Assembly (NCBI GenBank): GCA_016183365.1
Contig: JACPES010000003.1
Span: forward strand, 269,051 to 333,050
Source of the DNA: Candidatus Collierbacteria bacterium
Lineage (GTDB): Bacteria; Patescibacteriota; Microgenomatia; UBA1400; JACPES01
Direction of reading: 5' to 3'
Length of the DNA: 64,000 bases
Under the pieces are notes generated by a model. The model was not told the DNA's origin, did no database searches, and saw only the letters and a program-made list of their open reading frames with translations. Numbering within the stretch: position 1 is the stretch's first letter; every line of letters starts with the position of its first letter. A program made the translations under genes and the position numbers. This document shows positions 34,477-62,011 of this stretch, piece by piece.

Positions 34477-36766
34477 GAAATCTTTCAACCATTTAACCAT
34501 TCTAACCATTTTAACTTTTGTAGTCACCACAATATTTTACTTCAAGCCCATCTGGAAAAATAAGTTGATTCCTTTTCCAGGCCGCCTGCTGGTATCTTAT
34601 TTTAGCCCCTGGAAAGAAGAATCATGGCCCGAGTTTCCGACCGGAGTTCCGCGTAAAGGTCTATTGGGTTTTGATACCGCCAGAATGATGGGTTCCTGGC
34701 GCAGTTTTATTACAAACGAACTTAAACAAGGCAGATTGCCGACCTGGAACCCGCATCAGTTCGCCGGCGCCCCGCTTTTAGCCAATTTCCAATCGGCCAC
34801 TTTCTTTCCTCCCAATCTAATTTATCTCCTGCTTCCTTTTTCAATCGCCTGGACAATTTTAGTCATTTTTCAACCCTTGTTAGCAAGTTTTGGGATGTAT
34901 TTATTGCTTAAATCACAGTTTAAAGACAAAAACCTAATAACTAACAACCAAATACTAATAACTATTCTTCCTTCTCTCGCCTACGGTTTTTCCGCCTGGA
35001 TGTCTGTTTGGATAGAATGGAATATTCACGGTTTTGTTTACGCCCTGCTTCCATTTGTGCTCCTTTTTATCCATAAGAGAAAAGCCATTTTAATCATTTT
35101 AACCATTTCAGCCATTATTTTTGCCGGTCATCCGCAAATGGCCTTTATTGCCCTGACGGCTGCCGCGCTCTTTGCCGCGGTCAATCACCGTCTTAAAAAA
35201 TTTCTGTTGTCAGCCGCGGTCGCCCTTCTAATTACTTCTGTCCAGTGGATTCCCGCTGTTCGTTACTACCAAGAGGCCAGCCGGGAACAATCCTCAAGCG
35301 AATTTACTTACGAAAAAACTCTCTTACCGTGGGGCCAAATCTCGCAATTAATAGTTCCTAATTATCTGGGAAATTCCGCCACCGGAAATTTCCGCGGCCA
35401 AGCAAATTTTGTAGAAACCACCGCTTATTCAGGAATAGCAATTTTGGGATTTGCGATTATGGGATTGTTGGCAAGAAACAAGAAACAAGAAGTAAAATTT
35501 GCCGTTTTTCTCCTTCTGACAATTTTCCTTTTTGTTCTCCCCAACCCATTTTCATTTCTTGTAGGCAAACTCAACATCCCGATTCTTTCCACCAGCGTCG
35601 CCAGTCGCTGGCTGATGCTTTTGCCTCTGGCGGTAACTTTGTTAGCTGCCGCCGGTATCGACCGATTTATTGAACTAACTACATCAAACCCTACTAAAAA
35701 GGCCAGGCCTTTTCCGGAAAGGCCTGGCCTTTTCTCTCCCGCCGTTTTTGTTTTTATCCTAATAGCTGGTCTGTGGATATACGCTTTGCTATCTCCTTCT
35801 GAACTCCGTTCGGTTTCCATCCGCAATCTGATGATACCCAGCGCCATCGCCGGCTTATTCCTATTAACATTGTCATTCCGGACTGCCGACCCGCCTGCAA
35901 GCGCCTGGAGCGCTAGCGACTGGCGGGCAGGTCGGCAGTCTGTAATGAAGATTTTATTGTTTTCTTTGGTTGTTTTGTCTATCGGTGAGCTTATTTTATT
36001 CGGTTGGAAAACAATGCCGTACACTGAAAAAAATTTCGTTTATCCGGAGACTCCGGTGTTAGAAAAATTACAGGAGTTTTCCAAAGATGGTAGTAGATTT
36101 GCATCTACTGATGGCAGCGTAATCGAGTCAAATTTTGCCACTTATTATAAGTTATATGATTTATCAGGCTACGATGCTTTGTACCCGCGCAGAATCGGAG
36201 AATTGATTTGGGTAGCTCAAAATAAAGGGCAACCTGTAGCCGATTTTTCCCGGTCTACCGTGGTCACTCCCACCTCTCCTTCACTGACCAAAGATAATCT
36301 TTGGAACTTGGCCGGCGTCCGCTGGATCATCAATAAAGATGACCTGCTGTCAGAACATCCCGGCCAAAGATCTAATGATTTATCTCCCGACTTCAAACTT
36401 ATCTGGGAAGAAGGCAAGTGGCAAATCTACGAAAACCTTAACGCATTTCCTCGGGCTTTCTTTATTAAGAGTGGGGATTGGATTGGTGAGGGTGATGACG
36501 TGATTAGTAGCTCCTTAAATCTCTCAACCTCTTTAGTCTCCCTTATCACCCCGGCTAGAATTGTCTTCTATCAGCCGACAAAGGTGGCGATAGAGGTTAG
36601 CGCCCCAGCTGATGGTTATCTGGTATTAACCGATACTTTTTATCCCGGCTGGACGGCTACCGTTGATGGTCCTTTGGCGGAGATTGTTCCGGCGTTTCAT
36701 GCTTTTAGAGCCGTTCCGGTCTCTCAAGGAAATCATATTGTTAAGTTTAGTTACGGTTCTTTATAA
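34475..36766 (+). CDS. YfhO-like GT-C polytopic membrane protein (paralog of 56130 and 59927)
   Basis: Shared N-terminal pattern: …YFSPWKEE…GRLPTWNPHQFAGAPLLANFQSATFFPP…. Carries in-frame palindromes at 35697..35734 and 35872..35948 and a (CAAGAAA)3 repeat. Confidence 0.5.
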   Translation: MKSFNHLTILTILTFVVTTIFYFKPIWKNKLIPFPGRLLVSYFSPWKEESWPEFPTGVPRKGLLGFDTARMMGSWRSFITNELKQGRLPTWNPHQFAGAPLLANFQSATFFPPNLIYLLLPFSIAWTILVIFQPLLASFGMYLLLKSQFKDKNLITNNQILITILPSLAYGFSAWMSVWIEWNIHGFVYALLPFVLLFIHKRKAILIILTISAIIFAGHPQMAFIALTAAALFAAVNHRLKKFLLSAAVALLITSVQWIPAVRYYQEASREQSSSEFTYEKTLLPWGQISQLIVPNYLGNSATGNFRGQANFVETTAYSGIAILGFAIMGLLARNKKQEVKFAVFLLLTIFLFVLPNPFSFLVGKLNIPILSTSVASRWLMLLPLAVTLLAAAGIDRFIELTTSNPTKKARPFPERPGLFSPAVFVFILIAGLWIYALLSPSELRSVSIRNLMIPSAIAGLFLLTLSFRTADPPASAWSASDWRAGRQSVMKILLFSLVVLSIGELILFGWKTMPYTEKNFVYPETPVLEKLQEFSKDGSRFASTDGSVIESNFATYYKLYDLSGYDALYPRRIGELIWVAQNKGQPVADFSRSTVVTPTSPSLTKDNLWNLAGVRWIINKDDLLSEHPGQRSNDLSPDFKLIWEEGKWQIYENLNAFPRAFFIKSGDWIGEGDDVISSSLNLSTSLVSLITPARIVFYQPTKVAIEVSAPADGYLVLTDTFYPGWTATVDGPLAEIVPAFHAFRAVPVSQGNHIVKFSYGSL
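35697..35734. repeat. Near-perfect palindrome AAAAGGCCAGGCCTTTTCCGGAAAGGCCTGGCCTTTT, in frame in a CDS
   Basis: Member of the AAGGCCWGGCC family (see 52251, 52534, 57168). Encodes KKARPFPERPGLFS. Confidence 0.75.
35872..35948. repeat. GC-rich palindromic element GTCATTCCGGACTGCCGACCCGCC…GGCGGGCAGGTCGGCAGTC…TGTAATGA, in frame in a CDS
   Basis: Long imperfect stem. The 5' terminus is identical to the 22955 element. Encodes LSFRTADPPASAWSASDWRAGRQSVMK. Confidence 0.65.
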
Positions 36767-36773
36767 TTCTTTT

Positions 36774-37448
36774 ATGAAAATCTCAATTATTATCCCTGCT
36801 TTCAATGAAGGAAAAACTATTTCCAAAATAATTGAGTCTTTAAAAAAAGTTGATGGATTCCATAAAGAAATTATTGTGGTTGATGACGCGTCAACTGACG
36901 GAACATATAAAAAACTTCAAGATACTAAAGGAATAAAAGTTATCCGCCATCCAAAAAATTTAGGTAAAGGTTCGGCTATCAGAACCGGGATAAAGTCTTC
37001 CTCTGGCGATTATGTATTAGTCCAAGACGCCGATCTGGAGTACGATCCTCAAGACATACTGACCATGATAAAGCCTATTAACCAAGGGAAGGCGGAAGTC
37101 GTTTACGGGTCCAGATTTACCGGCTCGCGGCGCAATATGTTTTTTTGGCACTGGATGGGAAACCAGTTATTGACTCTGGTGACCAATATTCTCTATAACA
37201 CCACTCTTTCGGACATGGAAACTTGTTATAAATTAATTCCCTTGAAATTAATTAAATCGTTAAATTTGAGAGCTAAAAGGTTTGAATTTGAGCCGGAAGT
37301 GACCGTCAAGATTTTAAAAAGAGGCATCAGAATTTGGGAAGTCCCGATTTCCTATGCCGGCCGGGAATATCATGAGGGCAAGAAAATTACTTGGCGAGAT
37401 GGTATTCCGGCATTGTTTACATTACTAAAGTATCGTTTTGTGGATTGA
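36774..37448 (+). CDS. Family-2 glycosyltransferase (DPM-synthase-like)
   Basis: ATG at 36774. MKISIIIPAFNEGKTI…IVVDDASTDGT…VQDADLEYDP. Confidence 0.8.
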   Translation: MKISIIIPAFNEGKTISKIIESLKKVDGFHKEIIVVDDASTDGTYKKLQDTKGIKVIRHPKNLGKGSAIRTGIKSSSGDYVLVQDADLEYDPQDILTMIKPINQGKAEVVYGSRFTGSRRNMFFWHWMGNQLLTLVTNILYNTTLSDMETCYKLIPLKLIKSLNLRAKRFEFEPEVTVKILKRGIRIWEVPISYAGREYHEGKKITWRDGIPALFTLLKYRFVD

Positions 37449-37454
37449 AGGAAA

Positions 37455-38837
37455 ATGAACAAAAAACAAAAAACAAAAAACATCTTTGCTCTTTGCTCTT
37501 TGCTCTTTGCTCTTTTACCCCTATTCTGGAATCTCTTGCGTCCAGGTTTCTATTCTTCCGATGACGGCGAATGGATGGTAATTAGGTTAACCGCTTTTCA
37601 TGAATCTTTCCGCAAAGGGCAAATTCCGGTTAGGTGGTTGTCCAGATTAAATCATGAATATGGATATCCGGTAACTAATTTTCTTTATCCATTGCCATTT
37701 TATCTGGCTGAACCATTTTATGCGCTAACCAGGGATCCGGTTTTAGCCGTAAAAATAGTTATGGGATTGGCGATAGCCAGCATGGCTGTCGGATCATACG
37801 TTTTATTTAAAAAATGGGGAACAGCGGAGGGGATTATCGGTGCTTTAACATATTCTTATTCTCCATATGTAGTTTTTAATCTTTACCAGCGTGGTTCATT
37901 GGGAGAACTAGTGGCTATGGGAATAGTTCCATGGGTATTTTGGGCCATTTCTTCAAAAAAGCTGTTATTGTCATCGTTTTTTACCGCGGCATTAATAACA
38001 GCCCATAACGTGGTTGCCGCGCTTTTTTTGCCCCTAGTCGTGGTCTGTGTTTTGTGGAAATTTAAAACCAGAGCATGGTTTATGGTTCATGGTTTATGGT
38101 TTATGCTCGCTTTTGGCTTGAGCGCCTTCTTCTGGTTCCCGGCTTTGGCCGAGTACCGTTTTGTCCGGACATCTCAAATCGCGGTTTCGGATTTTAGTAA
38201 CGAATATCTTTCTTTACAAAATGCTTTTGAACGGACCGGACCAATCTCCGTTTTGACTAATTTTGGCTTGCCCTTGTTCTTTTTAACCGAAAATTCTAAA
38301 TGGTTTTGGAACTTATTCAAACCTTTGCAAATAATTCAGTTTCCCTGGAGATTATTAAATTTATTCTCTTTTATTTCTTCAGGAATTATTTCGTTTTTAA
38401 TTTTTAAATTAAAAAAATACCGCTTATTTCAATCTTTAATTATAATTTTTATAGCTGTTATAACATTTATTTCAGTTTTTCCCTTTCTGTCTCCAAAGTC
38501 TTTTACCAATTATCCTCCGAGCTATTATCAAACTAACGATGATAGTACCACGGTTAGAGCCGAATATACCCCGATCTGGGTAAATGATTGGCCTTTGGTT
38601 CGTCCGGAAACTCCCGTAAAACATTACTACCCCGGTCTAAAGTTGTTTGTGAACGGATCGGAAAAATTTGTTAATCCTGGTGAATATAACGGAGAGATAA
38701 GAAGTTCCGTTTTTGGCGAAGGCGGTAAGATCAAATTCATTTGGAGCGAGACGCCCTTGAGGGCAGCAACGGATTTAATATCAATTTTTAGTTTTTTGAT
38801 TATTTTATTTTTGTTTAAATATAGGTGGATAATATGA
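37455..38837 (+). CDS. Polytopic membrane protein (putative GT-C; paralog of 38834)
   Basis: The N-terminus is encoded by (AAAAAAC)3(TTTGCTC)4. GQIPVRWLSRLNHEYGYPVTNFLYPLPFY is conserved with the downstream paralog. Confidence 0.45.
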   Translation: MNKKQKTKNIFALCSLLFALLPLFWNLLRPGFYSSDDGEWMVIRLTAFHESFRKGQIPVRWLSRLNHEYGYPVTNFLYPLPFYLAEPFYALTRDPVLAVKIVMGLAIASMAVGSYVLFKKWGTAEGIIGALTYSYSPYVVFNLYQRGSLGELVAMGIVPWVFWAISSKKLLLSSFFTAALITAHNVVAALFLPLVVVCVLWKFKTRAWFMVHGLWFMLAFGLSAFFWFPALAEYRFVRTSQIAVSDFSNEYLSLQNAFERTGPISVLTNFGLPLFFLTENSKWFWNLFKPLQIIQFPWRLLNLFSFISSGIISFLIFKLKKYRLFQSLIIIFIAVITFISVFPFLSPKSFTNYPPSYYQTNDDSTTVRAEYTPIWVNDWPLVRPETPVKHYYPGLKLFVNGSEKFVNPGEYNGEIRSSVFGEGGKIKFIWSETPLRAATDLISIFSFLIILFLFKYRWII

Positions 38838-40357
38838 AGTTTATCCTTTTCATAATGTTGTTGAGTGTGCCTGCGGTCTGGCAAATCATCGCTCCTGGAT
38901 TTTTCCCGATGCACGACGATATCCAGGTGGCCAGAGTCGAGCAGATGTTTGTGGCTTTAAAATCAGGGCAGTTTCCTGTTCGTTGGGTGCCTGATTTAGG
39001 GTATGGCTACGGGTATCCGATTTTTAATTTTTATAATCCCTTAGCCTATTATTTTGGAGCGGCTTTTATGTTTTTAGGACTTGATGCTTTAGAGGCCACA
39101 AAATTGATGTTTATCTTTCCGGTTTTGGTATCGGGAATATCAATGTTTATATTTTCTAAACTTTTTTTATCCGATTTCGCTTCAGGATTTGCCGGATTAC
39201 TTTATGTTTATGCTGCATACCACGCGGTTCAAATCTACGTTAGGGGCGCGGTCGCCGAGTATTGGGCTTATGCCCTATTGCCGTTGGTTTTCTATGCCAT
39301 TTGGAAAAGAAAAATTATTTTTGCCGGACTAACTTTGGCTGCTTTAATCGCATCTCACAATCTTACTGCTTTTATGACTATTCCTTTTTTGGTGCTTTTA
39401 TTTTTATTTCGATATTTTAAAATATCGAAACTAAAAAATTTCAATAATGATAATTTAATCTTAATATTGTTTAGAGGAATGGTGCCATTGATGATTGGTT
39501 TAGGTTTGAGCGCCTTTTTTTGGCTACCATCTATTCTGGAATCTCCAAAAACCTTAGTTAGCCAAATGGTATTTGAAAAATTTGATCCCCCCTCAAAACA
39601 TGTGGTTTATCCATTACAACTATGGTCCGGAGTTTGGGGTTACGGCGGGTCATCTGCCGGAATTGATGATGGATTATCGTTTCAAATAGGTAAAATTCAT
39701 TTGATAGGAAGTCTTGCGGCAATTGCTATATTGCTATATTGTTATATTGTTAAACGAAAAGAAATTCAATTAACAATTGAGCAATTTAACAATTTAGCAA
39801 TTTTCTCTGTCGTCGGCTTAATACTTTCAGTATTTATCCTACTTCCTTTATCCCGGCCAATTTGGGATGCCTTTCCGGTCCTTTCCTATATCCAATTTCC
39901 CTGGCGCTTTCTGACGTTTGTTTCTCTATTTAGCTCTCTATTGACAGCTTGGGCGATTACAATGGTCTTGAACCTGATAGTAAAAAAAGAAGCCATGAAA
40001 AATGTAGCGTTCATTGCTTCTTGCTTCCTGCTTCTTGTTTCTTATATCAAATTCTTCCAACCCCAATTTAAATTTCCGGTTACAGCGGATGAACTAATTA
40101 CCCGGGAAAAACTGGTCTGGGATTATTCTAGGATCTCCTATGAATACTTGCCAAAGGGGTTTATTCCGCCCATAAACGCTGAAGTTGCCTTAAGAGTAGA
40201 TAATAAGCAGAATCAACTATTGGTCGACAGCCTAAAAGAGCAAACTATGGTTAGACGGGTTGCGAATATAATTAGCTTGTTCACGTTTATAACCTTTATA
40301 GCATTTGTTGTTGTTATTCCCTTTTGTAAGAAAAATGGACAAAATCTCTCAAGTTAA
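38834..40357 (+). CDS. Polytopic membrane protein (putative GT-C; paralog of 37455)
   Basis: GQFPVRWVPDLGYGYGYPIFNFYNPLAYY. ATG at 38834 (the ORF call from 38825 uses GTG). Confidence 0.45.
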   Translation: MKFILFIMLLSVPAVWQIIAPGFFPMHDDIQVARVEQMFVALKSGQFPVRWVPDLGYGYGYPIFNFYNPLAYYFGAAFMFLGLDALEATKLMFIFPVLVSGISMFIFSKLFLSDFASGFAGLLYVYAAYHAVQIYVRGAVAEYWAYALLPLVFYAIWKRKIIFAGLTLAALIASHNLTAFMTIPFLVLLFLFRYFKISKLKNFNNDNLILILFRGMVPLMIGLGLSAFFWLPSILESPKTLVSQMVFEKFDPPSKHVVYPLQLWSGVWGYGGSSAGIDDGLSFQIGKIHLIGSLAAIAILLYCYIVKRKEIQLTIEQFNNLAIFSVVGLILSVFILLPLSRPIWDAFPVLSYIQFPWRFLTFVSLFSSLLTAWAITMVLNLIVKKEAMKNVAFIASCFLLLVSYIKFFQPQFKFPVTADELITREKLVWDYSRISYEYLPKGFIPPINAEVALRVDNKQNQLLVDSLKEQTMVRRVANIISLFTFITFIAFVVVIPFCKKNGQNLSS

Positions 40358-41831: not shown

Positions 41832-41886
41832 CAAAAATAATTATTAATATCGCTTTGCTAGATTTCTCGCTGTAGCTCGAAATGAC
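41768..41886. repeat. GC-rich palindromic element GTCATCCCGAGCGAAGCCAGGTACCGGCCGGAACCTGGCGAAGTCGAGGGATCTAACGGAGTGAC plus a degenerate second copy ending …CTCGAAATGAC
   Basis: Forms the 3' end and stop codon of the flippase gene and the spacer before the next ATG. Close relatives at 17074..17121 (reverse) and 14332..14375. Confidence 0.65.
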
Positions 41887-41902
41887 GAAAGAATTATAGT
41901 TT

Positions 41903-42823: not shown

Positions 42824-42850
42824 CGCATTAACGTATCAACACATTAATCT

Positions 42851-43882: not shown

Positions 43883-43906
43883 ATTTATGAAGGGAAAAAT
43901 TGCGGT

Positions 43907-44130
43907 AACGGGGTGGAAAGATTGGATGAATGTTAAGGTTCTGCAAAAGGTAGTTATTGTGGACGAGATAGATAATATTTTGCTTCAAATTCTCATTTTT
44001 GACTATTTGCTATCAGGCTAAAGTTAAAGGAATTTCTCCAAATGTGGTTTTAAGCCAAGAATATGCCGAATACCGCTGGCTCTCAAAATCAGAAGCGCTA
44101 TCGCTCAATTCAATTCCTATCTTTTTAATC
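43907..44130 (+). pseudogene. Possible NUDIX hydrolase remnant (frameshifted fragments)
   Basis: Frame 1: MKGKIAVTGWKDWMNVKVLQKVVIVDEIDNILLQIL. Another frame: …SQEYAEYRWLSKSEALSLNSIPI, which is a NUDIX C-terminal-like pattern. No intact ORF. Weak evidence. Confidence 0.25.
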
Positions 44131-44136
44131 TTTGCT

Positions 44137-44170
44137 TTTAACTCTACGCGGCCGCGGATAGAAAAGAGCA
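44137..44170 (+). promoter_or_regulatory. Second copy of the TTAACTCT-CGCGGCCGCG-TAGAAAAGAGCA motif, abutting the ATG at 44172
   Basis: Near-identical to 10469..10500 upstream of argS. Confidence 0.45.
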
Positions 44171-44171
44171 T

Positions 44172-44873: not shown

Positions 44874-44898
44874 TTCCATTATTTTCGCTTGACTACTA

Positions 44899-45865: not shown

Positions 45866-45896
45866 TTTCTCCTAAAACTTGATTGAGAAAAATTTG

Positions 45897-51004: not shown

Positions 51005-51928
51005 GTGAAGTTATCAGTTGTCATCCCAAGCTATAACGGAAAACTTTTACTGGAGAAAAACCTCCCGGCGGTAATTCTGGCAGTTAATAACTGGGATCAA
51101 GGCCATAAATGGGAGGTTGTGGTTGTCGACGACGCTTCGACTGATGGGACTATCGAATGGTTGGCGCAAAACTATCCATCGGTAAAAGTGGTTAAAAACA
51201 AAAATAATTTACGTTTTGCGAAAAGCTGCAACCGCGGTGTGTCGCAAGCTATTGGCGACGTGGTGCTGCTTTTAAATAATGACGTCAAGCCTCAAAAAAA
51301 CTTTTTATCTCACCTATTGACACATTTCTCTGATGAATCTGTGTTTGCCGTGGGATGTTGCGAGCTTAATATGGTTGATGGTCAAGTCAAAGAAGGCGGT
51401 AGAGGAGTGTCAAGGTTTAACCGCGGGTTGGTGATCCATTGGCGGCCGGAGGATCAAAAAAATCAGGATGTCACTTGGGTTTCCGGCGGTAGCGCCGCCT
51501 TTAATAAAAGTATCTGGGATAAACTGGGAGGATTTGATAAATTATTCAGGCCGGCTTACGAAGAAGACCGCGACTTATGCTGGCAAGCTTTAAAATCCGG
51601 ATACAGAATAGTTTTTGAACCAAAAGCGGTGGTAGAGCATTTTCATGAAACCACTAATTTTAAATTATTCGGAAAAGCAAAAATTTCTTTATATTCCCTA
51701 AAAAATCAGCTTCTGTTTGTTTGGAAAAATGTATCTTCTCCGGAATATTTGTTTAATCATTTTCTTTGGTTACCATACCATTTGATTTTGACCACTTGGC
51801 GGACGAAGGGAATATTTTTAATAGCCTTTTGCTGGGCTTTGATTCAATTGCCGGAGGCCTTGGCTTCTAAAAGAAAGGCGTCAAAACTTTGGAGAGTAAA
51901 AGATGAAGAAATTTTTAAATTGGCTTAA
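51005..51928 (+). CDS. Family-2 glycosyltransferase
   Basis: GTG start. LSVVIPSYNGK…VVVDDASTDGT…LLLNNDV. Confidence 0.72.
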   Translation: MKLSVVIPSYNGKLLLEKNLPAVILAVNNWDQGHKWEVVVVDDASTDGTIEWLAQNYPSVKVVKNKNNLRFAKSCNRGVSQAIGDVVLLLNNDVKPQKNFLSHLLTHFSDESVFAVGCCELNMVDGQVKEGGRGVSRFNRGLVIHWRPEDQKNQDVTWVSGGSAAFNKSIWDKLGGFDKLFRPAYEEDRDLCWQALKSGYRIVFEPKAVVEHFHETTNFKLFGKAKISLYSLKNQLLFVWKNVSSPEYLFNHFLWLPYHLILTTWRTKGIFLIAFCWALIQLPEALASKRKASKLWRVKDEEIFKLA

Positions 51929-53456
51929 AGATAATTGGGGTTTAGTACTGGTTGTAATAATCGGCGGGCTTTTAAGGTTTTACCGCCTGCAGGACTTGAC
52001 TACATTTGGCGGAGATCAGGGGATTGATTACCAAAATGTGGCGAGAATGGTGGTAGAAAAAAGATTATCGTTGTTGGGCCCGGTAACCCATGTAGGAGTT
52101 TTTTTGGGTCCACTCTACTATTATCTTTTAATTCCGTTTTTTTTGATTTTTAAATTCGATCCGATTGCCACGCCGGTAATGTTTGGGTTGTTTGGGACGA
52201 CGACTGTGGGTTTGGTTTACATTTTGGCGAAACTTTTATTAAGGCCTGGCCTTGCCGGGCAAGGCCAGGCCTTTGTTGATATATTCGTCTTTCTGACTGC
52301 TCTCCTCTACGCCGTTTCACCGGTTATTCTAGAGTCCAGCCGGGCGCCATCGCAACCGCACTTGATTCCATTTTTTGCGACTCTACTGTTAATTTCAATT
52401 GTCCGCATTGTCGAGAAAAGGGATAAATGGTGGGATTGGGTTCTAACCGGGATATGTTTGGCCAGTGTGATTCAATTCCACTTTTTGGCGTTTCCGCTAT
52501 GGATTTTTACAGCAATTATATTGGTTGTCAGTAAAGGCCTGGCCCCGCTCAGCGGGGCCAGGCCTTATAAGATTTTTCTACTGGCGATTCCGGCGGTAGT
52601 TCTGTTGTTTCCCTGGTTTTTATTCGAAATCCGCCACAATTTTTTTATCACTAATCAAATTCTTGCCTACCTTCGTTCAGGAGAAGTTGAATTTCACCCA
52701 ATTGTTTATATGGAACGTGTTTTGGATTTAATCTGGTTTAGTTTTGATAAGCTGATAGGACAGGGAAACCAGTTTATTACACTTTTGTCAATCATTTTTT
52801 TCTTGTTTGCGACTAGTACTTTCTATTACAAAAAGGAGTCTCCTTTACGGAGAGACAACAGGGTCTTTTTCATCTTAATATCGTACTTCTGGCTGAATAT
52901 TTTCGGCATTGCTCTATATAAATTTCCTTTTTCCAACCATTACATTTCTGCTTTGTATCCCATAATAGTATTATTATTTTCTATCGGAGTATTTCAGATT
53001 ATGCCTCGACTATTAGCTTTTATAACTTTTTTAATATTTATTTTCTTTATTTTTCTCCACAATAATTTTACTTCTAATCACGGATATACCATGCCGGAGT
53101 GGGTAAATGCCAGCCTGATTCAAAAAGCGGCGGAAATGATTACGGGAGATATTAAAAAACAAGCCGGAACTTATAATGTGGTAAATACCCTAGACGGCGA
53201 TACCAGAGCAAATCCATACCGTTATGTTTTAATGTATAAATACAAAGTTGCCCCATTGGGGGTAGAGAAATATCCCGAAGCGGATCATTTATATATTGTC
53301 ACCAGAAACAGAAAGAATGAGTTACTGGATGACAGGCGTTGGGAATTGGCAAGTTTTCCGGTAGAAATGATTGAAGATTTAGGCATGATCGGCGGGGATA
53401 TAAAGATGTATAGATGGGATAATGGATCAGCCGATAGAAAGGATTTAAGAGAATGA
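51903..53456 (+). CDS. GT-C-like polytopic membrane protein (paralog of 23812/27100) carrying three in-frame palindromes
   Basis: FGGDQGIDYQNVARMV…LLGPVTHVGVFLGPLYYYLLIPF. Palindromes at 52251..52283, 52534..52566 and 52832..52846. Confidence 0.5.
   Translation: MKKFLNWLKDNWGLVLVVIIGGLLRFYRLQDLTTFGGDQGIDYQNVARMVVEKRLSLLGPVTHVGVFLGPLYYYLLIPFFLIFKFDPIATPVMFGLFGTTTVGLVYILAKLLLRPGLAGQGQAFVDIFVFLTALLYAVSPVILESSRAPSQPHLIPFFATLLLISIVRIVEKRDKWWDWVLTGICLASVIQFHFLAFPLWIFTAIILVVSKGLAPLSGARPYKIFLLAIPAVVLLFPWFLFEIRHNFFITNQILAYLRSGEVEFHPIVYMERVLDLIWFSFDKLIGQGNQFITLLSIIFFLFATSTFYYKKESPLRRDNRVFFILISYFWLNIFGIALYKFPFSNHYISALYPIIVLLFSIGVFQIMPRLLAFITFLIFIFFIFLHNNFTSNHGYTMPEWVNASLIQKAAEMITGDIKKQAGTYNVVNTLDGDTRANPYRYVLMYKYKVAPLGVEKYPEADHLYIVTRNRKNELLDDRRWELASFPVEMIEDLGMIGGDIKMYRWDNGSADRKDLRE
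52251..52283. repeat. Perfect 33-bp palindrome AAGGCCTGGCCTTGCC-G-GGCAAGGCCAGGCCTT inside a CDS
   Basis: 16-bp arms checked by hand. Encodes LRPGLAGQGQAFV in frame. Confidence 0.85.
52534..52566. repeat. Perfect 33-bp palindrome AAGGCCTGGCCCCGC-TCA-GCGGGGCCAGGCCTT inside a CDS
   Basis: 15-bp arms. Shares the CCCGCTCAGCGGG core with the 29828 insertion. Encodes KGLAPLSGARPYK. Confidence 0.85.
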
Positions 53457-54292: not shown

Positions 54293-55083
54293 AATTATCT
54301 GCGATAGTTATCACAAACAATTCTGCTGCCAAAATAAAAGGTTGTCTGAAATCGTTAAAATTTGCCGATGAAATTATAGTTGTGGATTCAGGCTCTACCG
54401 ATAAGACTAAAGAATTGGTCGAAAAAACCGGGGCCAGGGTTTTTGAAGTTGAAAATGTCGGCTATTCTCATAGCCGTAACGTTGGGGCCCAAAAGGCCAA
54501 AGGCGAATGGTTACTTTATATTGACGCGGATGAAAGGGTTACTCCTGAATTGGAAAAAGCAATATCCGTCATTGCGAGCCCCGTTGCGGGGCTCGCAATG
54601 ACTTTTCAGAGCTACAAAATTTACCGCAAGAATATTATCCTAGGAAAATGGCTCAAACACGGCGGCTGGTGGCCTGATCCGGTCCACCGGCTGATCAAAA
54701 AATCAGCGCTGAAAGAATGGACGGGAAAACTCCACGAATACCCCATTATTGATGGGAATGTTGGTCTGATTACTGAGCCTCTCGTTCATTTTTCAAAAGG
54801 TTCGATATCGGAAATGGTAAAAAATTCCCGCGACTTTGTGCCAATAGAAGCGCAATTGAAATCAGATGCTGGTCATCCGCCGGTAAAAATCTATCATTTT
54901 GTTTTGGCTATGTGGAGAGAGTTTTGGACCAGGGGTATTTTGAAAGCCGGTTGGTTAGATGGCATAGTCGGCATAATCGAAATCTTTTATCAAATGTTCC
55001 ACCAATTTATGGTCTATTCAATATTATGGCAAATGCAACAGTCTTCTTTCCGTCATCCTGAGCGAAACAAAAAATCTCGTTAA
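54289..55083 (+). CDS. Family-2 glycosyltransferase carrying an in-frame 35-bp perfect palindrome
   Basis: LSAIVITNNSAAKI…IIVVDSGSTDKT…YIDADE. Palindrome at 54568..54602. The C-terminus ends in a truncated element (55052..55068). Confidence 0.75.
   Translation: MKLSAIVITNNSAAKIKGCLKSLKFADEIIVVDSGSTDKTKELVEKTGARVFEVENVGYSHSRNVGAQKAKGEWLLYIDADERVTPELEKAISVIASPVAGLAMTFQSYKIYRKNIILGKWLKHGGWWPDPVHRLIKKSALKEWTGKLHEYPIIDGNVGLITEPLVHFSKGSISEMVKNSRDFVPIEAQLKSDAGHPPVKIYHFVLAMWREFWTRGILKAGWLDGIVGIIEIFYQMFHQFMVYSILWQMQQSSFRHPERNKKSR
54568..54602. repeat. Perfect 35-bp palindrome GTCATTGCGAGCCCC-GTTGC-GGGGCTCGCAATGAC inside a GT2 CDS
   Basis: Carries the GTCATTGC…GCAATGAC termini of the main element family. 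Encodes IASPVAGLAMT in frame. Confidence 0.88.
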
Positions 55084-56129: not shown

Positions 56130-58190
56130 ATGATTAAAAGACAATTATTTCAATCAATTAATCAATTAATTAATTGGAGAGAAATTAAACCATATCTGGC
56201 ATTTTCTTTTATCTGGATAATATTTTCGTACCCTTTCTTTTTTCAGGGCAGGATTCCGGCGCCGCTGGATTTTTTGGTTAATTTTTACGCGCCGTGGGAT
56301 ACCTACTATGATTCGCCGGTAAAAAATCCGAGCTTATCCGATGTGGTCGCCCAAATAATTCCATGGAAGATTTTCAATGGCCAAGAACTGCGCGCTGGCA
56401 GAATTCCCTTATGGAATCCATATAATTTGACAGGGGCACCTCATTTGGGGAATTGGCAAAGCGGGGTTTTGTATCCGACGACTTTATTGTTTCTGATTTT
56501 TCCAGATCCTATTGCTTGGTCGCTTCATGTTTTACTTCAACCTTTGCTGGCTGGAATTTTTATGATTTTATTTTTACGGCAACTAAAAATTTCCCCCCTA
56601 GCTTCACTTTTGGGAGCAATAGTTTTTGCATATGGCGGATTTATGACATCCTGGTTTGAATGGGGAACTTTGGGCCACGCTCTGCTGTGGTTGCCGCTGG
56701 CATTATACGGAATATTAAGGACGAAGGACGAAGGACGAAGGACGAAGATATCAGCGTTAACGATTTTTTCTTTAACAATGTCTCTTTTGGCGGGGCATCC
56801 ACAAACCTCGATTTACGTCATGATTGCAGTTATCGGATACTATTTATATAAGAATATAAGAAATGACAATAAGCTCTCACTGTTTCTTGTTTCTTGTTCC
56901 TTGTTTCTTATCCCCATACTTCTTGCAGCCCCCCAAGTTTTTCCTTCAATCCAAGTTTATTCGGAGTCTGCACGGAATTTGGTTGACGGCAGAAGCTGGG
57001 CTAAAGCGTTTTTGATCAAGCCTGCCGATTTTTTAACATTCCTCGCTCCGGATTTCTTCGGTAATCCTACTACCAGAAATAGTTGGAGCGATTTTTCGTA
57101 TGTGGAAATGCAAGGATATGTTGGTGTCGTGACTTTTATGTTGGCATCAGTGGCTGTTATGAACATTAAAAGGCCTGGTCCCGCGGTGGCGGGGTCTAGC
57201 CTTATCAAGTTTTTGATTTGCGGGATTGTTATCGCATTAATGCTGGCGACTAAAAATCCGATTTCGGAATTGATTATTGATTTGAATTTGCCAATTATTT
57301 CCGACAGCAGTCCGGCCAGAATCATGGGACTAATTAACTTTTCATTGGCGGTTTTGGCGGCATTTGGTCTGGATTCTTTTACAAAACTTATTAAAGAGAA
57401 AAAGACAAAATTCTTAAACTCCGGGATTTATTTTATCGCGGCTATTTTGGCCGGAATGTGGATATGGACTTTTGCGTCAACTAATCCTAATGCCCTGGTG
57501 ACCAGAAGAAACTTGATTTTTCCCTCAACCGTTTTTGCGGTCTTTAGTATGGCGTATTTTCTGATTTCAAAAATATTCGCTAATCCGCGGGTCCGGACAT
57601 TGTTTTTTGTTTTTTGTTTTTTGTTTTTTGTCTCTCTCGATCTTTTCCGCTTTCACCATAAATTTACGCCTTTTTCAGATATAAAAAATTGGTATCCGGA
57701 AGTTCCGGTTATTACTCAACTCAAATCATCTTCAGGACGAATTTTTGGGACTTTGGAGGCGAATTTAAACCTGCCGTTTAGGTTGAAATCAATTGATGGT
57801 TACGATCCCTTAATCAATCGGAATCTTGTTTTAATGACGTACGATCCACAGGCGCTGTCAACACATAACAGGATTACTTCGCCGGACTTTCCGAAGGGAA
57901 ACGCCCAAACAATTGCCAGCTTAGGTAAATTGGGAGTCAAGAGAGTTATAGATTCTGCCGTTCCCGGGGGTAATTCCTGGGATCTTCGGTTATGGGAATA
58001 CGGCGATCAGTTCCGGTTGGATTGGAAAGATGTAAAGTATCAGATACTTTACAACACGCAGGCTCAAGAATCAGAACTGGAACCGATTTCCGGAATGAAA
58101 AACGGCCAAATAAAACTATTTAACCTTGGGATATTAATTTCCAGCTCGACCGTATTTGGTATGCAAATTTGGAAAAAATATGCTAAATAA
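56130..58190 (+). CDS. YfhO-like GT-C polytopic membrane protein (paralog of 34475/59927)
   Basis: …YAPWDTYYDSPVKNPSLSDVVAQIIPW…GRIPLWNPYNLTGAPHLGNWQSGVLYP…. Contains (ACGAAGG)4, (TTTCTTG)4 and (GTTTTTT)4 heptamer arrays and a degraded palindrome at 57168..57205. Confidence 0.5.
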   Translation: MIKRQLFQSINQLINWREIKPYLAFSFIWIIFSYPFFFQGRIPAPLDFLVNFYAPWDTYYDSPVKNPSLSDVVAQIIPWKIFNGQELRAGRIPLWNPYNLTGAPHLGNWQSGVLYPTTLLFLIFPDPIAWSLHVLLQPLLAGIFMILFLRQLKISPLASLLGAIVFAYGGFMTSWFEWGTLGHALLWLPLALYGILRTKDEGRRTKISALTIFSLTMSLLAGHPQTSIYVMIAVIGYYLYKNIRNDNKLSLFLVSCSLFLIPILLAAPQVFPSIQVYSESARNLVDGRSWAKAFLIKPADFLTFLAPDFFGNPTTRNSWSDFSYVEMQGYVGVVTFMLASVAVMNIKRPGPAVAGSSLIKFLICGIVIALMLATKNPISELIIDLNLPIISDSSPARIMGLINFSLAVLAAFGLDSFTKLIKEKKTKFLNSGIYFIAAILAGMWIWTFASTNPNALVTRRNLIFPSTVFAVFSMAYFLISKIFANPRVRTLFFVFCFLFFVSLDLFRFHHKFTPFSDIKNWYPEVPVITQLKSSSGRIFGTLEANLNLPFRLKSIDGYDPLINRNLVLMTYDPQALSTHNRITSPDFPKGNAQTIASLGKLGVKRVIDSAVPGGNSWDLRLWEYGDQFRLDWKDVKYQILYNTQAQESELEPISGMKNGQIKLFNLGILISSSTVFGMQIWKKYAK

Positions 58191-58893
58191 ATTCTTTTTA
58201 CCTCCTGATGTTTTTATTCGCCACTGGTTGGTAGCGCGAGAGATTCGCAAAGGGCCTCTCCGAAGGTTATCGGGAGAATCATTATTAGATGTTGGGGGAT
58301 CGCTCGCTGAATTTCGTAAATTTATAGCCAAACTGGAAATTACCACCGCGGACGTGGTGGCGGGAGCAGACGTTGTCTATAATGGCCAAAAACTTCCGTT
58401 AGATAATGCTTCATTTGATTATGTAGTCTCGGTTGATACTTTAGAACACATCCCGCCGGAAAAAAGATTAGGTTTTGTGAATGATTTAGTTAGAGTAGCT
58501 AAACAAAGAGTTGTTATTATCGCGCCTTTTGCTTCAATGCAACATGATATATATGAGAAAAATTTAATATTGGATTTCAAGAAGAGTGAAAAAAAGATTC
58601 CGGTTTATTTAACTGAACATCGAAAACACGGTTTGATAAGTCTCGGTCAGTTAATTGAGATCGGGAAAAGTTACCCGACGGCAATTTACAGTCTAGCCGG
58701 TCTGGTTTGGCTGGATAAATTAAATTTTGCGGTCCACATGTTTGAAGTCAATCCCGGAAAAATAAACAGAGTTATTTATATTTTAAAGTTTATTTGGAAT
58801 TTGGTTATAAACCTTATATCTTCTTTAATGATTATTAATCCTGATAAAAATACGGCCAGCAGGGTAATTATCGTTATTGACAAATACAATTGA
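58180..58893 (+). CDS. Class I SAM-dependent methyltransferase
   Basis: LDVGGSLAEF (motif I-like) … VVSVDTLEHIPPEKRLGFVNDLVRVAK (motif II/III-like). ATG at 58180. Confidence 0.6.
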   Translation: MLNKFFLPPDVFIRHWLVAREIRKGPLRRLSGESLLDVGGSLAEFRKFIAKLEITTADVVAGADVVYNGQKLPLDNASFDYVVSVDTLEHIPPEKRLGFVNDLVRVAKQRVVIIAPFASMQHDIYEKNLILDFKKSEKKIPVYLTEHRKHGLISLGQLIEIGKSYPTAIYSLAGLVWLDKLNFAVHMFEVNPGKINRVIYILKFIWNLVINLISSLMIINPDKNTASRVIIVIDKYN

Positions 58894-59930
58894 AGAAAAT
58901 TTTAATCCATTCTCCATATTGGCATATCGGCGGCGGCGGAGAACGATACGCTTTGACAGCGGCGCAATGTTTAAGTCGTGAGGCTTTAGTCTCGGTGGAC
59001 GTGGGAGAAAATAACAACTTGGAAGTTCTCGGTGAAAGCTTGGGGCTAGATTTAAACCGGGTGAAAACCGTTCGAAAAATAACCGAGGTTAAGAAAATTA
59101 TAGGTTTCGATGGCATATTTTGGCTGTCAGATGGCAGTATCCCATTTCTGCCGTTTTTTTCGACTAAAGTTATTCATTTTCAAGCTCCGTTCCAAAAAGT
59201 AGATGGTAAAAACCTGAAAAACAGGTTGAAACTAATGGGGACTAAAGTGATTTGTAATTCCAAATATACTAAAGGGTTTATTGATAAAGAATTCGGGATA
59301 AATTCAATGGTGATTTATCCGCCGGTTGCGACTGACCGATTTAAACCAATGTCTAAGGACAAATTGATTTTGACAGTTGGCCGATTTAGTTCTTCTTCCC
59401 AATTTAAACGTCAGGATTTACTGATAGAGGCGTTTAAAGATTTAATCAAAAACAGAGTTAGGGGTTGGAGGATGGTTGTGGTCGGTAAAGTCGAAGATAA
59501 CCAAAGCCTTAAAATGATTTCCGACCTAAGGTCGAAAATAAAAGGTTTTCCGATAACCATTAAAACAGATTTAGATCAGGACAGATTAAGGTCTCTTTTT
59601 TGCCGGTCGGCGATATATTGGCACGCTGCAGGTTACGGAGTAAATTTGAACGATTATCCGGAACGAGCCGAGCATTTCGGCATTAGCACGGTTGAAGCTA
59701 TGGCCGCCGGAGCTATTCCGTTATCTTTCGCTGCCGGTGGTCAATTAGAAATAATTTCTAGTGGGGAGAACGGATTTTTATGGACAACTTCGCAGGAACT
59801 GATAATGCTGACAAAAAAGATAATTAATGATTCCGAATTAAAAGAGCGGATTGGTTTGGCGGCTATTAGCCGGGCCGAGAATTTTAGCCAAGACAATTTC
59901 TGTCGGAAAATTAGAGAATTGTTTAAGTGA
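58890..59930 (+). CDS. GT4 (group 1) glycosyltransferase
   Basis: C-terminal GT-B pattern …LTVGRFSSSSQFKRQDLLIEAF…FGISTVEAMAAGAIPL…. Confidence 0.72.
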   Translation: MKKILIHSPYWHIGGGGERYALTAAQCLSREALVSVDVGENNNLEVLGESLGLDLNRVKTVRKITEVKKIIGFDGIFWLSDGSIPFLPFFSTKVIHFQAPFQKVDGKNLKNRLKLMGTKVICNSKYTKGFIDKEFGINSMVIYPPVATDRFKPMSKDKLILTVGRFSSSSQFKRQDLLIEAFKDLIKNRVRGWRMVVVGKVEDNQSLKMISDLRSKIKGFPITIKTDLDQDRLRSLFCRSAIYWHAAGYGVNLNDYPERAEHFGISTVEAMAAGAIPLSFAAGGQLEIISSGENGFLWTTSQELIMLTKKIINDSELKERIGLAAISRAENFSQDNFCRKIRELFK

Positions 59931-62011
59931 AAATATTAAATTTGGTTCGAAATTTAATAGCTTATGTCATTCCAGCGATCCTTCGACAAGCTCAGGATGG
60001 TGAGCACCGTCGAACCAAAGCTGGAATCTATTTAAATAGTAGTTCCGCCAAAGGCGGAATGACAATGGTGATTTTGATTGTACTATCTTTGTCTTTTTTC
60101 TGGCCTGTATGGTTTAAGGGAAAACTGCCGATTCCGGCCGATGCTTTAGTCGGATTGTATCACCCGTTCCGAGATTATTACGCGGCTGATTTTCCGAATG
60201 GGGTCCCGTTTAAAAATTATATTTTGACTGATCCGGTATTGCAGCAGTACCCGTGGAAATGGTTAGCTATAAATCAGTTAGGGAGTATCCTTAAAGGAGT
60301 CTCCTTTAAGGATACTCCCTTGTTGGAAAATCCTTATTCTTTTGGCGGTTACGGAGCCAGTTCAATAGAAAATATTCAGGCGGGGACATTTTATCCGCTG
60401 AACATCCTTTTTTTTCTTATCAATAATTTTTCCGCGGCATGGACGGTTTTTATCATCCTTCAGTCAATCTTGGCTTCATTATTTATGTACTGGTGGCTTA
60501 AAGAAAATTCCTTAAAAAATTCGGCAGCGATTTTTGGCGGGTTAGTTTGGGCGTTTTCTTCTTTCAATTTGGTCTGGCTGGAGTGGGGGAATATTGGACA
60601 TGCCGGACTGTGGTTGCCATTGGCACTATTGTGTGTTGACAAAATGCAAAAAACAAAAAACAAAAAACAAAAAACCTGGAAATGGCATGCGATTCTGCAA
60701 TTTGTACTATCAAGCAGCCTTTTTGCCGGACATTTGCAAGTGACGCTTTATCTACTGATGGCTGTGGCGCTGTATTGGTTTATCCGGCTGGGTATTTCGA
60801 AACGATCTATTTCATTGTTTCTTGTTTTTTGTTTCTTGTTTCTTGCCCTTACGTCCATTCAATGGATTCCATCACTGAAATTTACTCTCTCATCAAATCG
60901 TGAAGTCGAGCAACAGGATGCTCTTACCCGCGAAGGGTTTTTCATTCGTCCCCATCAGTTAGTTCAAATGATAAGTCCGGATTTTTTTGGCAACCCGTCG
61001 ACTTTGAATTATCGCGGCGCTTGGAATTATGCCGAACAGGTAATTTATATCGGAATCATTCCTTTACTATTTGTTCTTTTAGGCGTTCTCACCAAAAACT
61101 CTCAAAAAAATGATGTAGATTCGATATGCTATAGCTTATCGAATCTACATCTACATAGGTTTTGTTGGTCGCTGATAATTATCGGTTTGTTGTTCGCGAC
61201 TGACAATCCGATTTCGCGTTTGCCTTATCAATTAAAGCTGCCATTAATTTCTGATCTGCAACCGACAAGATTATCTTATTTGATTACTTTCGGACTATCT
61301 TCCCTTTCGGCTTTTGGTCTCAACGAGTTTATTAAAAATCCCCGGAAATTATTCTCAAAAGTTATAACCATCGTTGTCGTCTTTACCGTTTTGCTGTTTG
61401 CCCTATTAATAATTAGCAGTAAACTTTCACCGGAAGATAAATTAATTTCCCAACGCAACTTAATATGGCCAGTAACGCTTTTGATTTTATTTTATATTTT
61501 AAGTGGATTGTTCTACTTGTTTGAGAACAAAAAACAAAAAACAAAAAACAAAAAACTTCAGCTCTTTGCTCTTTGCTCTTTGCTTTTTGTCATTTCCGAT
61601 CTCTTCCGTTTCGGCTGGAAATTTACTCCGTTCTCTCCAAAAGAATATTTGTATCCCATAACTCCTGCCATAAAATTTTTGCAAAACAATATTCGGGAAA
61701 ACGACAGATATATGACTTTAGACCGCCGCATTTTACCTCCGAATGCAAATATAATTTATGAATTGAAATCAATCGAAGGTTACGATCCAATTTATTCGAA
61801 ACAATACGCGTTGTTAATAGGAGAGATGGAATCCGGGGAAGTAGCCGATAAGCCGCAGAGTTTTGGTCGGATTATCAGGCCTATAAACTATAAATCCCCG
61901 ATTACTGCTCTTTTGGGAGTCCGTTACGCGCTTAGTCTGTCTGATCTTGAAGAGGAGAGGTGGGTTAAGGTTTTTCAAGAAGGGAAAACTAGAATCTATG
62001 AAAGACGGTAG
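59927..62011 (+). CDS. YfhO-like GT-C polytopic membrane protein (paralog of 34475/56130); start uncertain
   Basis: The ORF call uses GTG at 59927. Alternative ATGs at 60059 and 60065 lie at the end of the 59966..60063 repeat element. Carries (AAAAAAC)4 ×2, (TTTGCTC)3 and (TTTCTTG)4 arrays and a perfect 39-bp palindrome. Confidence 0.5.
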   Translation: MKILNLVRNLIAYVIPAILRQAQDGEHRRTKAGIYLNSSSAKGGMTMVILIVLSLSFFWPVWFKGKLPIPADALVGLYHPFRDYYAADFPNGVPFKNYILTDPVLQQYPWKWLAINQLGSILKGVSFKDTPLLENPYSFGGYGASSIENIQAGTFYPLNILFFLINNFSAAWTVFIILQSILASLFMYWWLKENSLKNSAAIFGGLVWAFSSFNLVWLEWGNIGHAGLWLPLALLCVDKMQKTKNKKQKTWKWHAILQFVLSSSLFAGHLQVTLYLLMAVALYWFIRLGISKRSISLFLVFCFLFLALTSIQWIPSLKFTLSSNREVEQQDALTREGFFIRPHQLVQMISPDFFGNPSTLNYRGAWNYAEQVIYIGIIPLLFVLLGVLTKNSQKNDVDSICYSLSNLHLHRFCWSLIIIGLLFATDNPISRLPYQLKLPLISDLQPTRLSYLITFGLSSLSAFGLNEFIKNPRKLFSKVITIVVVFTVLLFALLIISSKLSPEDKLISQRNLIWPVTLLILFYILSGLFYLFENKKQKTKNKKLQLFALCSLLFVISDLFRFGWKFTPFSPKEYLYPITPAIKFLQNNIRENDRYMTLDRRILPPNANIIYELKSIEGYDPIYSKQYALLIGEMESGEVADKPQSFGRIIRPINYKSPITALLGVRYALSLSDLEEERWVKVFQEGKTRIYERR
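59966..60063. repeat. Full-length GC-rich palindromic element GTCATTCCAGCGA … GGCGGAATGAC at the 5' end of a GT-C gene
   Basis: Long-range stem ATTCCAGC/GCTGGAAT plus a TTCCGCCAAAGGCGGAA hairpin. Translated in frame if the GTG start is used (…VIPAILRQAQDGEHRRTKAGIYLNSSSAKGGMTM…). Confidence 0.7.
60281..60319. repeat. Perfect 39-bp palindrome GGGAGTATCCTTAAAGGAG-T-CTCCTTTAAGGATACTCCC inside a CDS
   Basis: 19-bp arms checked by hand. Encodes GSILKGVSFKDTPL. The core AAAGGAGTCTCCTTT recurs at 52832..52846. Confidence 0.88.

Follow-up and report, generated by a model that had tools for sequence, protein, structure and literature searches.

Why should a bacterial genome with scant room between its genes carry short and often perfect palindromes inside the genes themselves? 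This question is raised by a 64-kb stretch of the Candidatus Collierbacteria genome (GenBank assembly GCA_016183365.1, contig JACPES010000003.1, positions 269,051 to 333,050; hereafter the window), in which a preliminary description had listed a handful of such palindromes. The window has a coding share of about 94% and comprises an envelope-glycosylation cluster whose genes are co-directional and among which GT2, PMT_2-like GT-C and YfhO genes are numerous; we name the genes here by their first window coordinate. The palindromes listed earlier lie in one GT-C (PMT_2-like) gene, 51903, and in three YfhO genes, 34475, 56130 and 59927; a further one lies in the GT2 gene 54289. Comparing the window with selected loci of relatives, we consider it probable that these are selfish or neutral "protein-coding palindromes", short DNA hairpins within the genes of a gene-dense genome. 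Their perfection would reflect a DNA-level process rather than selection on the RNA stem.

Insertions within open reading frames

The palindromes of the preliminary description are present in the sequence, perfect or nearly so at 35697-35733, 52534-52566 and 60280-60320, degraded at 57170-57203 and reduced to a solo core at 52832-52846. Most positions stand with small adjustments, one had been placed 10 nt away ("52251..52283", actually 52241-52273), and the arms at 52534-52566 and 60280-60320 measure 16 and 20 nt rather than 15 and 19. Four further palindromes had been overlooked (54568-54602, 61112-61151, 35873-35948 and 24436-24474; Table 1). As had been supposed, arms of this length are not expected by chance: six hairpins with arms of at least 14 nt occur in six host genes, compared with none in 200 synonymous-codon shuffles and none in 200 codon-order shuffles, where the longest arm was 13. 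RNA folding, one of the checks that had been proposed, predicted energies between -21 and -35 kcal/mol (z-scores between -3.2 and -8.6). Hairpins of at least 12 pairs numbered 14 in the 64-kb window as compared with 16 in 678 kb around distant homologues, and no hairpin of at least 14 pairs was found in those 678 kb.

Comparison with relatives shows that several of these palindromes are in-frame insertions in variable loops, at sites that are filled, empty, degraded or replaced in other genomes. In the DNA of eight orthologues of gene 51903, three fixed sites can be recognized, each of them empty, perfect (with a quite different sequence) or degraded; at one site the window carries AAGGCCTGGCCTTGCCgGGCAAGGCCAGGCCTT and the loci L006 and L007 carry CAGGAGTCTCCTGGCCGTACGGCCAGGAGACTCCTG, and in the L009 orthologue all three sites are empty. 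Site 1 coincides with an exact 11-residue gap in the paralogue 23812 and is empty in about 10 of 30 orthologues, and a gene pair of about 90% DNA identity differs by clean indels of 84 nt at site 1 and about 42 nt at site 2. The GT2 gene 54289 has a long form of its element (about 95 nt) at the same place in L006, and none in the L002, L004 and L102 orthologues. Similarly, the element at 35697 is either kept with compensatory changes in orthologues (P0217/L205: GGCTGGGCC...GGCCCAGCC) or missing from them.

The earlier proposal that the palindromes are hairpin insertion elements is thus borne out by the gap in the paralogue, the empty orthologues, the clean indels and the arms shared between non-orthologous loci. 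Its companion claim, that gene 23812 lacks a palindrome at the equivalent position, holds for site 1 and fails for site 2, where the paralogue has a palindrome of its own (24436-24474, at the homologous position). That inserts decay is confirmed by the degraded copy at 57170, whose orthologous site in L006 (9732-9765) is occupied by the perfect copy KRPGLAKARPGL. Decay does not run one way only, however, for imperfect palindromes have also been rewritten into perfect ones.

Where the host is a membrane protein, the inserts are placed between its hydrophobic segments; the element at 35697, encoding KKARPFPERPGLF, is an example. An AlphaFold2 model of the 51903 protein, with a mean predicted local distance difference test score (pLDDT) of 85, places sites 2 and 3 in loops with pLDDT below 50 (aa 213-219 and aa 313-317, respectively) and site 1 in a helix-helix turn with pLDDT of about 73. 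At the last of these sites, the orthologue in L008 (approximately 3280-3330) and the proteins P0009 and P0010 have a 7-nt tandem repeat, CATCATC x3, with the peptide IHHPSSIIH in place of the palindrome of other orthologues, and site 1 appears to be a general indel hotspot.

Co-variation, apex symmetry and local origin of the arms

The main family is built from a 13-nt self-palindromic unit, AAGG-NCNGN-CCTT (here AAGGCCWGGCCTT) or CAGGAGWCTCCTG, two of which enclose a short stem rich in GC (GCC-GTAC-GGC and CCCGCT-c-AGCGGG are examples); the ends of the element are AAGG/CCTT or CAGG/CCTG. Solo units are found in the window at 24449 and 52833. All 39 catalogued AAGG-type copies lie inside long open frames, their first base falling at codon position 1, 2 or 3 in 9, 17 and 13 copies, respectively; this is not a significant preference for coding DNA, as 0.94^40 is about 0.08 at 94% coding. 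More than half of the copies (21/39) are free of stop codons in all six frames, as compared with 4.3% of random 34-mers from the window. The leading AAGG often coincides in part with Lys-Gly or Leu-Arg codons of the host, and we found no sequence-specific target in the flanks.

The two arms of these elements change together. Over the outer 13 pairs of 20 distinct copies, 97.7% of cells are Watson-Crick or wobble pairs, and changes on both sides were found in 10 of the 13 pairs, a result matched by none of 500 shuffles. Such co-variation is seen at site 3 of gene 51903 between L006 and L007 (G-C<->A-T), and between P0217 and the window at the element 35697; at site 2, L008 and L197 differ by a transversion pair (G-C<->C-G), a change for which there is no route through wobble intermediates. 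The symmetry moreover runs through the apex: half of the distinct perfect elements (12/24) have at most one unpaired central nucleotide (P ~5e-9 against a null of 1/16, with related copies treated as independent), and the centre of the element 35697 is also symmetric save for a 1-nt indel. Because no hairpin can pair at its apex, this symmetry points to the copying of duplex DNA and is hard to obtain from selection on a stem. Flip-flop inversion was considered for the central bases that are swapped (T..A vs A..T) between orthologous copies and was rejected, as inversion of the whole element leaves them unswapped.

Alignment with orthologues shows two palindromes, both in gene 59927, to have arisen by local template switching. 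At 61112 (site B), the orthologues P0097, P0088 and P0092 share a palindrome that is imperfect, its outer arms being 9 bp long and 14 of its 19 pairs intact, as compared with 18-19 of 19 in the window. Over 19 nt, the right arm in the window, TAGCTTATCGAATCTACAT, matches exactly the reverse complement of the ancestral left arm that P0097 preserves, and P0097 itself lacks TAGCTTATCGAATCTACAT; a 6-nt duplication, CTACAT, occurs at 61146-61157, where copying would rejoin the original template. As read from this alignment, a single template switch in the lineage of the window accounts for the clustered substitutions as well as for the duplication and the new stem. At 60280 (site A), the left arm consists of the host codons GSILKG, whose reverse complement forms the right arm (FKDTP). 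P0097 has just AAAGGAT/ATCCTTT at this place, a 7-bp quasi-palindrome, to which the window and P0098 add 24 bases; these being the reverse complement of the adjacent GSILKG codons, the 60280 palindrome was made locally. In other relatives the KG codons of site A carry an AAGGCC-type element (L002 and L004), a deletion (P0087) or, in distant YfhO proteins, the short ancestral form. The earlier grouping of the palindromes into one repeat family with two cores is not upheld: the cores differ in family, and the palindrome at 60280 represents local host codons and not an imported AAGGCC-type element. These observations agree with template switching, a published mechanism that creates and maintains hairpins (PMC8794818), and with arm conversion, which has been proposed as the means of maintenance for the coding palindromes of Nematomorpha mitochondria (PMC6649704).

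Palindromes can also be nested within one another. In P0217, an orthologue of gene 34475, we found an uninterrupted 28-nt perfect palindrome, TTTCGGACTGCCGA|TCGGCAGTCCGAAA, exactly in the middle of which the window has a 42-nt insert of the CCGCCTGC...GCAGG family (35890-35931), itself a GC-rich palindrome encoding PPASAWSASDWRAG. The resulting compound hairpin has a predicted RNA folding energy of -51.7 kcal/mol. With the related CCGCCTGCC...GGCAGG segments that L005 and L197 carry at the apices of their AAGG-type hairpins, apex nesting occurs three times in the aligned loci, indicating that palindrome centres are preferred entry points.

Dispersal and competing explanations

Identical arms of 15-16 nt, with different apex bases, are found at non-orthologous loci, and the family therefore spreads between loci; the arms of 52241-52273, which constitute the "master" sequence of this dispersed family, recur in this way. 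The sister genome Collierbacteria JACRNH has at least nine AAGGCCWGGCC hairpins (AAGGCCWGGCCTT-type), all of them in long open reading frames (ORFs), among which are a GT2 gene, a GT4 gene with three of the copies, and genes for a PrmC-like methyltransferase, for YfhO and for further membrane proteins. When species-representative genomes were scanned with the pattern AAGGCCWGGCC-N(0-20)-GGCCWGGCCTT, the matches listed came mostly from unrelated, often high-GC bacteria; among them were the JACRNH copies and, in other lineages of the candidate phyla radiation (CPR), elements in RecJ, in the UvrC of a Paceibacteria genome and in one helicase of UvrD/PcrA type. A scan of viral contigs with the master sequence gave 0 matches. 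That all palindromes reside in GT-C membrane-protein genes, as had been stated, is hence correct for the copies listed then, with their PMT_2-like and YfhO hosts, and incorrect for the phenomenon, which includes soluble enzymes such as GT2.

In RecJ of three CPR genomes (L125 1470-1503, Gottesmanbacteria; L131 187-220; L085 601-634), a AAGGCCWGGCCTT doublet (KGQALALEGLAL or KGLALASQGQAL) occupies the same position, so that it was either inherited from long ago or targeted repeatedly to this conserved enzyme of DNA repair. The UvrD/PcrA-like helicase at L183 687-3920 appears to have, in addition to its palindrome insert, a large insertion with ...VVVHNS at its end after a DxxIEHAHNF motif; by eye, this insertion resembles an intein. 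Recurring peptides mark further in-frame repeat families, namely SLSCKAGPCSAGRNF (GTCCTGC...GCAGGAC type), IPAQAGI... and FARNDG (GTCATTGCGAG family), in the 34475 orthologues P0210, P0222, P0223 and P0226, at L113 1525-1556 and in the L189 and L147 hosts, which suggests many hairpin families within the genes of these genomes.

Non-autonomous transposable elements would be one source of such dispersal: miniature transposable elements with inverted repeats (MITEs), or doublets of repetitive extragenic palindromes (REPs) resembling REPINs, mobilised by a transposase elsewhere (a RAYT/IS200-like Y1 enzyme, or an insertion sequence (IS) recognising the arms), perfection then being a mark of recent transposition. 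The identical arms at many unrelated loci in several genomes fit this explanation, as do the filled and empty alleles in near-identical genes and the two inverted short palindromic units within a larger hairpin, as in REPINs; a nested family that targets palindrome centres likewise recalls IS elements, which reportedly target REPs. We nevertheless regard it as unlikely. A Pfam scan of about 55 window ORFs detected no transposase or Y1 domain, no consistent target-site duplication was found in the flanks of 37 copies (merely A/T-rich) or between filled and empty sites, and the elements have no GTAG or CGTC tag. In addition, several subtypes coexist in one gene, orthologous copies persist and co-vary with no turnover, and two palindromes come demonstrably from local sequence. 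At 33-41 nt the elements are smaller than a usual MITE, and the terminal inverted repeats of a MITE are present trivially, the whole element being an inverted repeat. Transposition in any case concerns dispersal, and could be compatible with maintenance by template switching.

The second alternative is that the palindromes are functional mRNA hairpins in coding regions, which slow the ribosome for membrane insertion or serve as RNase III or stability determinants in long operon transcripts. It would account for the very stable predicted RNA stems, for their place between hydrophobic segments in membrane hosts and for the preservation of stems by compensatory change at orthologous sites; the three single mismatches of L002, too, are all sense-strand G.U. 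Set against this, the elements also occur in soluble enzymes (GT2, GT4, PrmC-like, RecJ, UvrC, UvrD), close orthologues, genes 90% identical among them, lack them or have them degraded or replaced, their symmetry runs through an apex that is unpairable in RNA, and their compensatory changes include transversions. Wobble and A.C mismatches stand at 7:4 (a hand tally, not significant), and Rfam at the gathering score matched none of the palindromes, returning just two tRNAs in the window. We therefore consider this explanation improbable, and the pausing of translation of polytopic proteins, put forward in the preliminary description, is not supported, given the soluble hosts, the patchiness among close orthologues, the apex symmetry and the lack of a clear G.U bias.

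Very improbable, in our view, is a binding or recognition site, in which a dimeric DNA-binding protein, a restriction-modification enzyme or a DNA-uptake receptor reads the 13-mer AAGGCCWGGCCTT, which contains GGCC, CCWGG and AGGCCT. Each 13-mer is itself palindromic, as is typical of dimer sites, the units are about 20 bp apart and GGCC-type sequence is conserved in several genomes. The inner five bases vary widely, however (CCTGG, TCCGA, ACTGT, AGTCT, TCTCA and others), while remaining complementary, and this free variation of the arms speaks against the sequence-specific protein that had also been suggested; the elements are sparse, at about 5 per 64 kb, they are insertions rather than recoded host sequence, and solo units are rare. 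Finally, although AAGGCC...GGCCTT hairpins also occur in unrelated bacteria, a chance origin is refuted and the likelihood of a codon-usage by-product or an assembly artefact is close to nil, since shuffles produce no such hairpins and the same sites are occupied, with intact reading frames, in independent assemblies (NCBI, JGI, ENA, Logan).

We return to protein-coding palindromes of a selfish or neutral nature. Three kinds would coexist in this genome: the dispersed family of two 13-mers, other dispersed GC-rich families (GTCATTGCGAG..., CCGCCTGC...GCAGG) and palindromes made locally from host codons. They would enter or originate as in-frame, stop-free segments and last only at positions where the protein can accept 8-15 additional residues, such as turns between transmembrane helices and surface linkers, thereafter persisting at orthologous sites. 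During replication the nascent strand would switch template and copy one arm from the other, a quasi-palindrome correction of the kind reportedly described in E. coli by Ripley (1982) and by Dutra and Lovett (2006). Arm copying would mend mismatches and yield the double "compensatory" changes, the apex symmetry and the extension of arms into host codons, and copies that escape correction would decay or be lost by in-frame deletion. The compared sequences themselves show the insertions, the dispersal of the family, the co-variation, the apex symmetry, the two template-switch events and the apex nesting; we infer that template switching is the general maintenance mechanism and that the elements have no cellular function.

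Several points weigh against this picture. Template switching copies nearby sequence, while identical 16-nt arms are found in distant, unrelated genes on different contigs; a further copying step is therefore required, which must be a mobilising activity or ectopic copying. The conservation of GGCC-type arms across genomes with only 60-75% protein identity hints at sequence constraint or continual re-seeding and not at free drift. The apex-symmetry statistic counts related copies as independent, translation of the inserts is deduced from their open frames, and a modest role of the RNA hairpin, for example in mRNA decay, may exist. The sample is also limited, comprising 64 kb of the source genome together with chosen loci from relatives.

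A tentative and, in our estimation, rather doubtful extension is that these miniature palindromes propagate in CPR genomes with no dedicated transposase: they would be seeded at AAGG/CCTT microhomologies or at palindrome centres, through template switching to ectopic hairpins, and then be kept perfect by arm copying. The loss of hairpin-processing nucleases in reduced genomes might enable such a spread. If true, this would be a self-perpetuating, structure-based selfish DNA that systematically remodels the protein loops of CPR bacteria, including those of conserved enzymes such as RecJ and UvrC.

The palindromes in their genome and among known systems

Table 1. Palindromes of the window and two of their host genes, in window coordinates.
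Feature	Position	Strand	Description
AAGG-type palindromic element	35697..35733	+	AAAAGGCCAGGCCTTT tccgg AAAGGCCTGGCCTTTT; perfect arms of 16 nt around a 5-nt loop; lies in frame within YfhO gene 34475-36766
Compound hairpin, ~76 nt	35873..35948	+	YfhO gene 34475-36766; older palindrome with arms 35878-35889 / 35932-35942, centre split by insert
Site 1 of GT-C gene 51903-53456	52241..52273	+	AAGGCCTGGCCTTGCC g GGCAAGGCCAGGCCTT; 16-nt arms; peptide (L)RPGLAGQGQAF
Site 2 of gene 51903	52534..52566	+	AAGGCCTGGCCCCGCT c AGCGGGGCCAGGCCTT; 16-nt arms; peptide KGLAPLSGARPY
Site 3 remnant of gene 51903	52832..52846	+	solo self-palindromic core AAAGGAGTCTCCTTT; full 33-36-nt palindromes at site 3 in orthologues
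Short form of second dispersed family, GTCATTGCGAG...CTCGCAATGAC	54568..54602	+	GTCATTGCGAGCCCCG/CGGGGCTCGCAATGAC; in frame in GT2 gene 54289-55083; encodes VIASPVAGLAMT
Degraded AAGG-type copy	57170..57203	+	4 mismatches (two G.T); YfhO gene 56130-58190; peptide KRPGPAVAGSSL; RNA fold -21 kcal/mol
Perfect 41-nt palindrome	60280..60320	+	20-nt arms; YfhO gene 59927-62011
AT-rich 40-nt palindrome	61112..61151	+	19/20 pairs; YfhO gene 59927-62011
Imperfect 39-nt palindrome	24436..24474	+	15/19 pairs; centred on solo 13-mer AAGGTCTGACCTT (24449-24461); paralogue 23812-25347
Host gene, polytopic GT-C (PMT_2-like) glycosyltransferase	51903..53456	+	three palindrome sites; PF13231 in orthologues, AlphaFold2 model, paralogue alignment
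Host gene, YfhO-family membrane protein	59927..62011	+	two locally generated palindromes

The real start of gene 59927 is probably further downstream, because its orthologues span about 93% of the gene. Intrinsic terminators were rejected as an identity for the coding palindromes: a terminator scan of 34001-54000 flagged none of the AAGG-type elements at 35697, 52241 and 52534, and the palindromes lie inside ORFs, many of them with loops of 0-1 nt. The same scan flagged a repeat run at 37458-37507, in which (TTTTTTG)n is followed by short tandem repeats of (CTTTGCT)n type at the start of the ORF 37455-38837 (minus strand, AAGAGCAAAGAGCAAAGAGC...GTTTTTTGTTTTTTG). Within the YfhO gene 34475-36766, ARAGORN called a 98-nt tRNA-Ser(gga) at 34729-34826 (-), for which Rfam gave no match at the gathering score; the call is probably a false positive.

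The window has other palindromes as well. Those with a CCGCGGCCGC(GG) core and AAAAGAG/CTCTTTT-like flanking arms (10455-10510, 44133-44170, 44889-44942 and 45893-45934; for example, CTCTACGCGGCCGCGTAGAG) are intergenic, unlike the coding palindromes, and are probably what the preliminary description called its first repeat family; two of them flank a PaaX/Cas2-like ORF (45035-45865). The 23-nt palindrome TGTAAAGTATCnGATACTTTACA occurs twice, at 17451-17473, in the gap directly upstream of the methyltransferase gene 16635-17438 (-), and at 58031-58053, inside the 3' end of gene 56130 and about 100 nt upstream of the ORF 58156-58893. It is also identical in an orthologous contig (L201 1105-1131), and looks like a candidate operator or promoter-associated site. 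In the segment 13682-14654, two small ORFs with a GIY-YIG nuclease domain, 13743-14141 (-) and 14343-14654 (+), flank tRNA-Glu and tRNA-Gln, and a perfect AT-rich 28-nt palindrome (14306-14333) begins at the final base or bases of tRNA-Gln, whose end is placed at 14306 by Rfam and at 14307 by ARAGORN. The window also has an RmuC-family gene at 3243-4265 (-). RmuC limits inversions at short inverted repeats in E. coli; that such a gene occurs in a genome rich in palindromes may be relevant or may be coincidence.

Our literature search found no description of such elements in CPR bacteria. The closest known systems are the mitochondrial coding palindromes and the Rickettsia palindromic elements (RPEs), which were reportedly described by Ogata et al. 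in 2000 (Science) and 2002 (Genome Res). Like the present elements, RPEs are in-frame palindromic repeats in unrelated coding genes of a small, reduced genome, where they add an extra peptide at tolerated positions, form several families and decay with time (PMC10969869). They are, however, imperfect repeats of about 100-150 bp restricted to Rickettsia, each family encoding a conserved peptide of its own in a single frame (PMC10969869), whereas the elements studied here measure 33-41 nt, are mostly perfect, occur in all three phases, are usually open in six frames, contain 13-nt self-palindromic units and belong to Patescibacteria. The coding palindromes of Nematomorpha mitochondria share with them perfect inverted repeats in coding sequences, a "binary" state of perfect or lost, dynamic gain and loss, the proposed arm-to-arm conversion or template switching, and a parasitic character (PMC6649704). 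There, both arms encode conserved protein regions and reach 284 bp (PMC6649704), while ours are short, are mostly extra loop insertions and include dispersed families.

The hairpins attributed to template switching provide the likeness in mechanism, in that a single event copies neighbouring sequence as its reverse complement, perfects the stem and leaves multi-base "compensatory" clusters (PMC8794818), exactly the pattern at 61112 and 60280. This is a mutational mechanism rather than an element family, and alone it leaves the dispersal of identical arms unexplained. With mitochondrial GC clusters, double-hairpin elements and the byp elements of Magnusiomyces (cited in PMC6649704), the present elements have in common that they are short, GC-rich, palindromic mobile inserts invading the coding regions of compact genomes; those are organellar, and byps are skipped by the ribosome, whereas here the frame is open and presumably translated. 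REPs and REPINs are likewise GC-rich palindromes of 20-40 nt, arranged as doublets of inverted units (as are the two 13-mers around a GC stem), with a genome-specific consensus and with the hairpin as a target for other elements. REPs are, however, extragenic, imperfect, tagged with GTAG or CGTC and associated with RAYTs, whereas our elements are untagged and in ORFs, with no Y1_Tnp among the window ORFs scanned. The REPIN/RAYT system is said to have been described by Bertels and Rainey in 2011. Relative to known coding palindromes, what is new here is the combination of a much shorter length, mostly perfect arms, indifference to frame, 13-nt self-palindromic units, template-switch footprints and apex nesting.

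CPR genomes are tiny; in this one, about 94% coding in the window and with scant intergenic room, selfish DNA would be found inside genes instead, in the form of frame-neutral palindromes. If general, this would be a second, independent bacterial case after Rickettsia, and one that would steadily supply loop insertions to envelope glycosyltransferases and even to core enzymes of DNA repair. The low-complexity Pro/Gly/Ala peptides so encoded, and the spurious similarity that they create between unrelated proteins, make trouble for annotation and for homology searches. The elements also hold a base-by-base record of template switching, which may link the maintenance of hairpins to the DNA-repair repertoire of reduced genomes.

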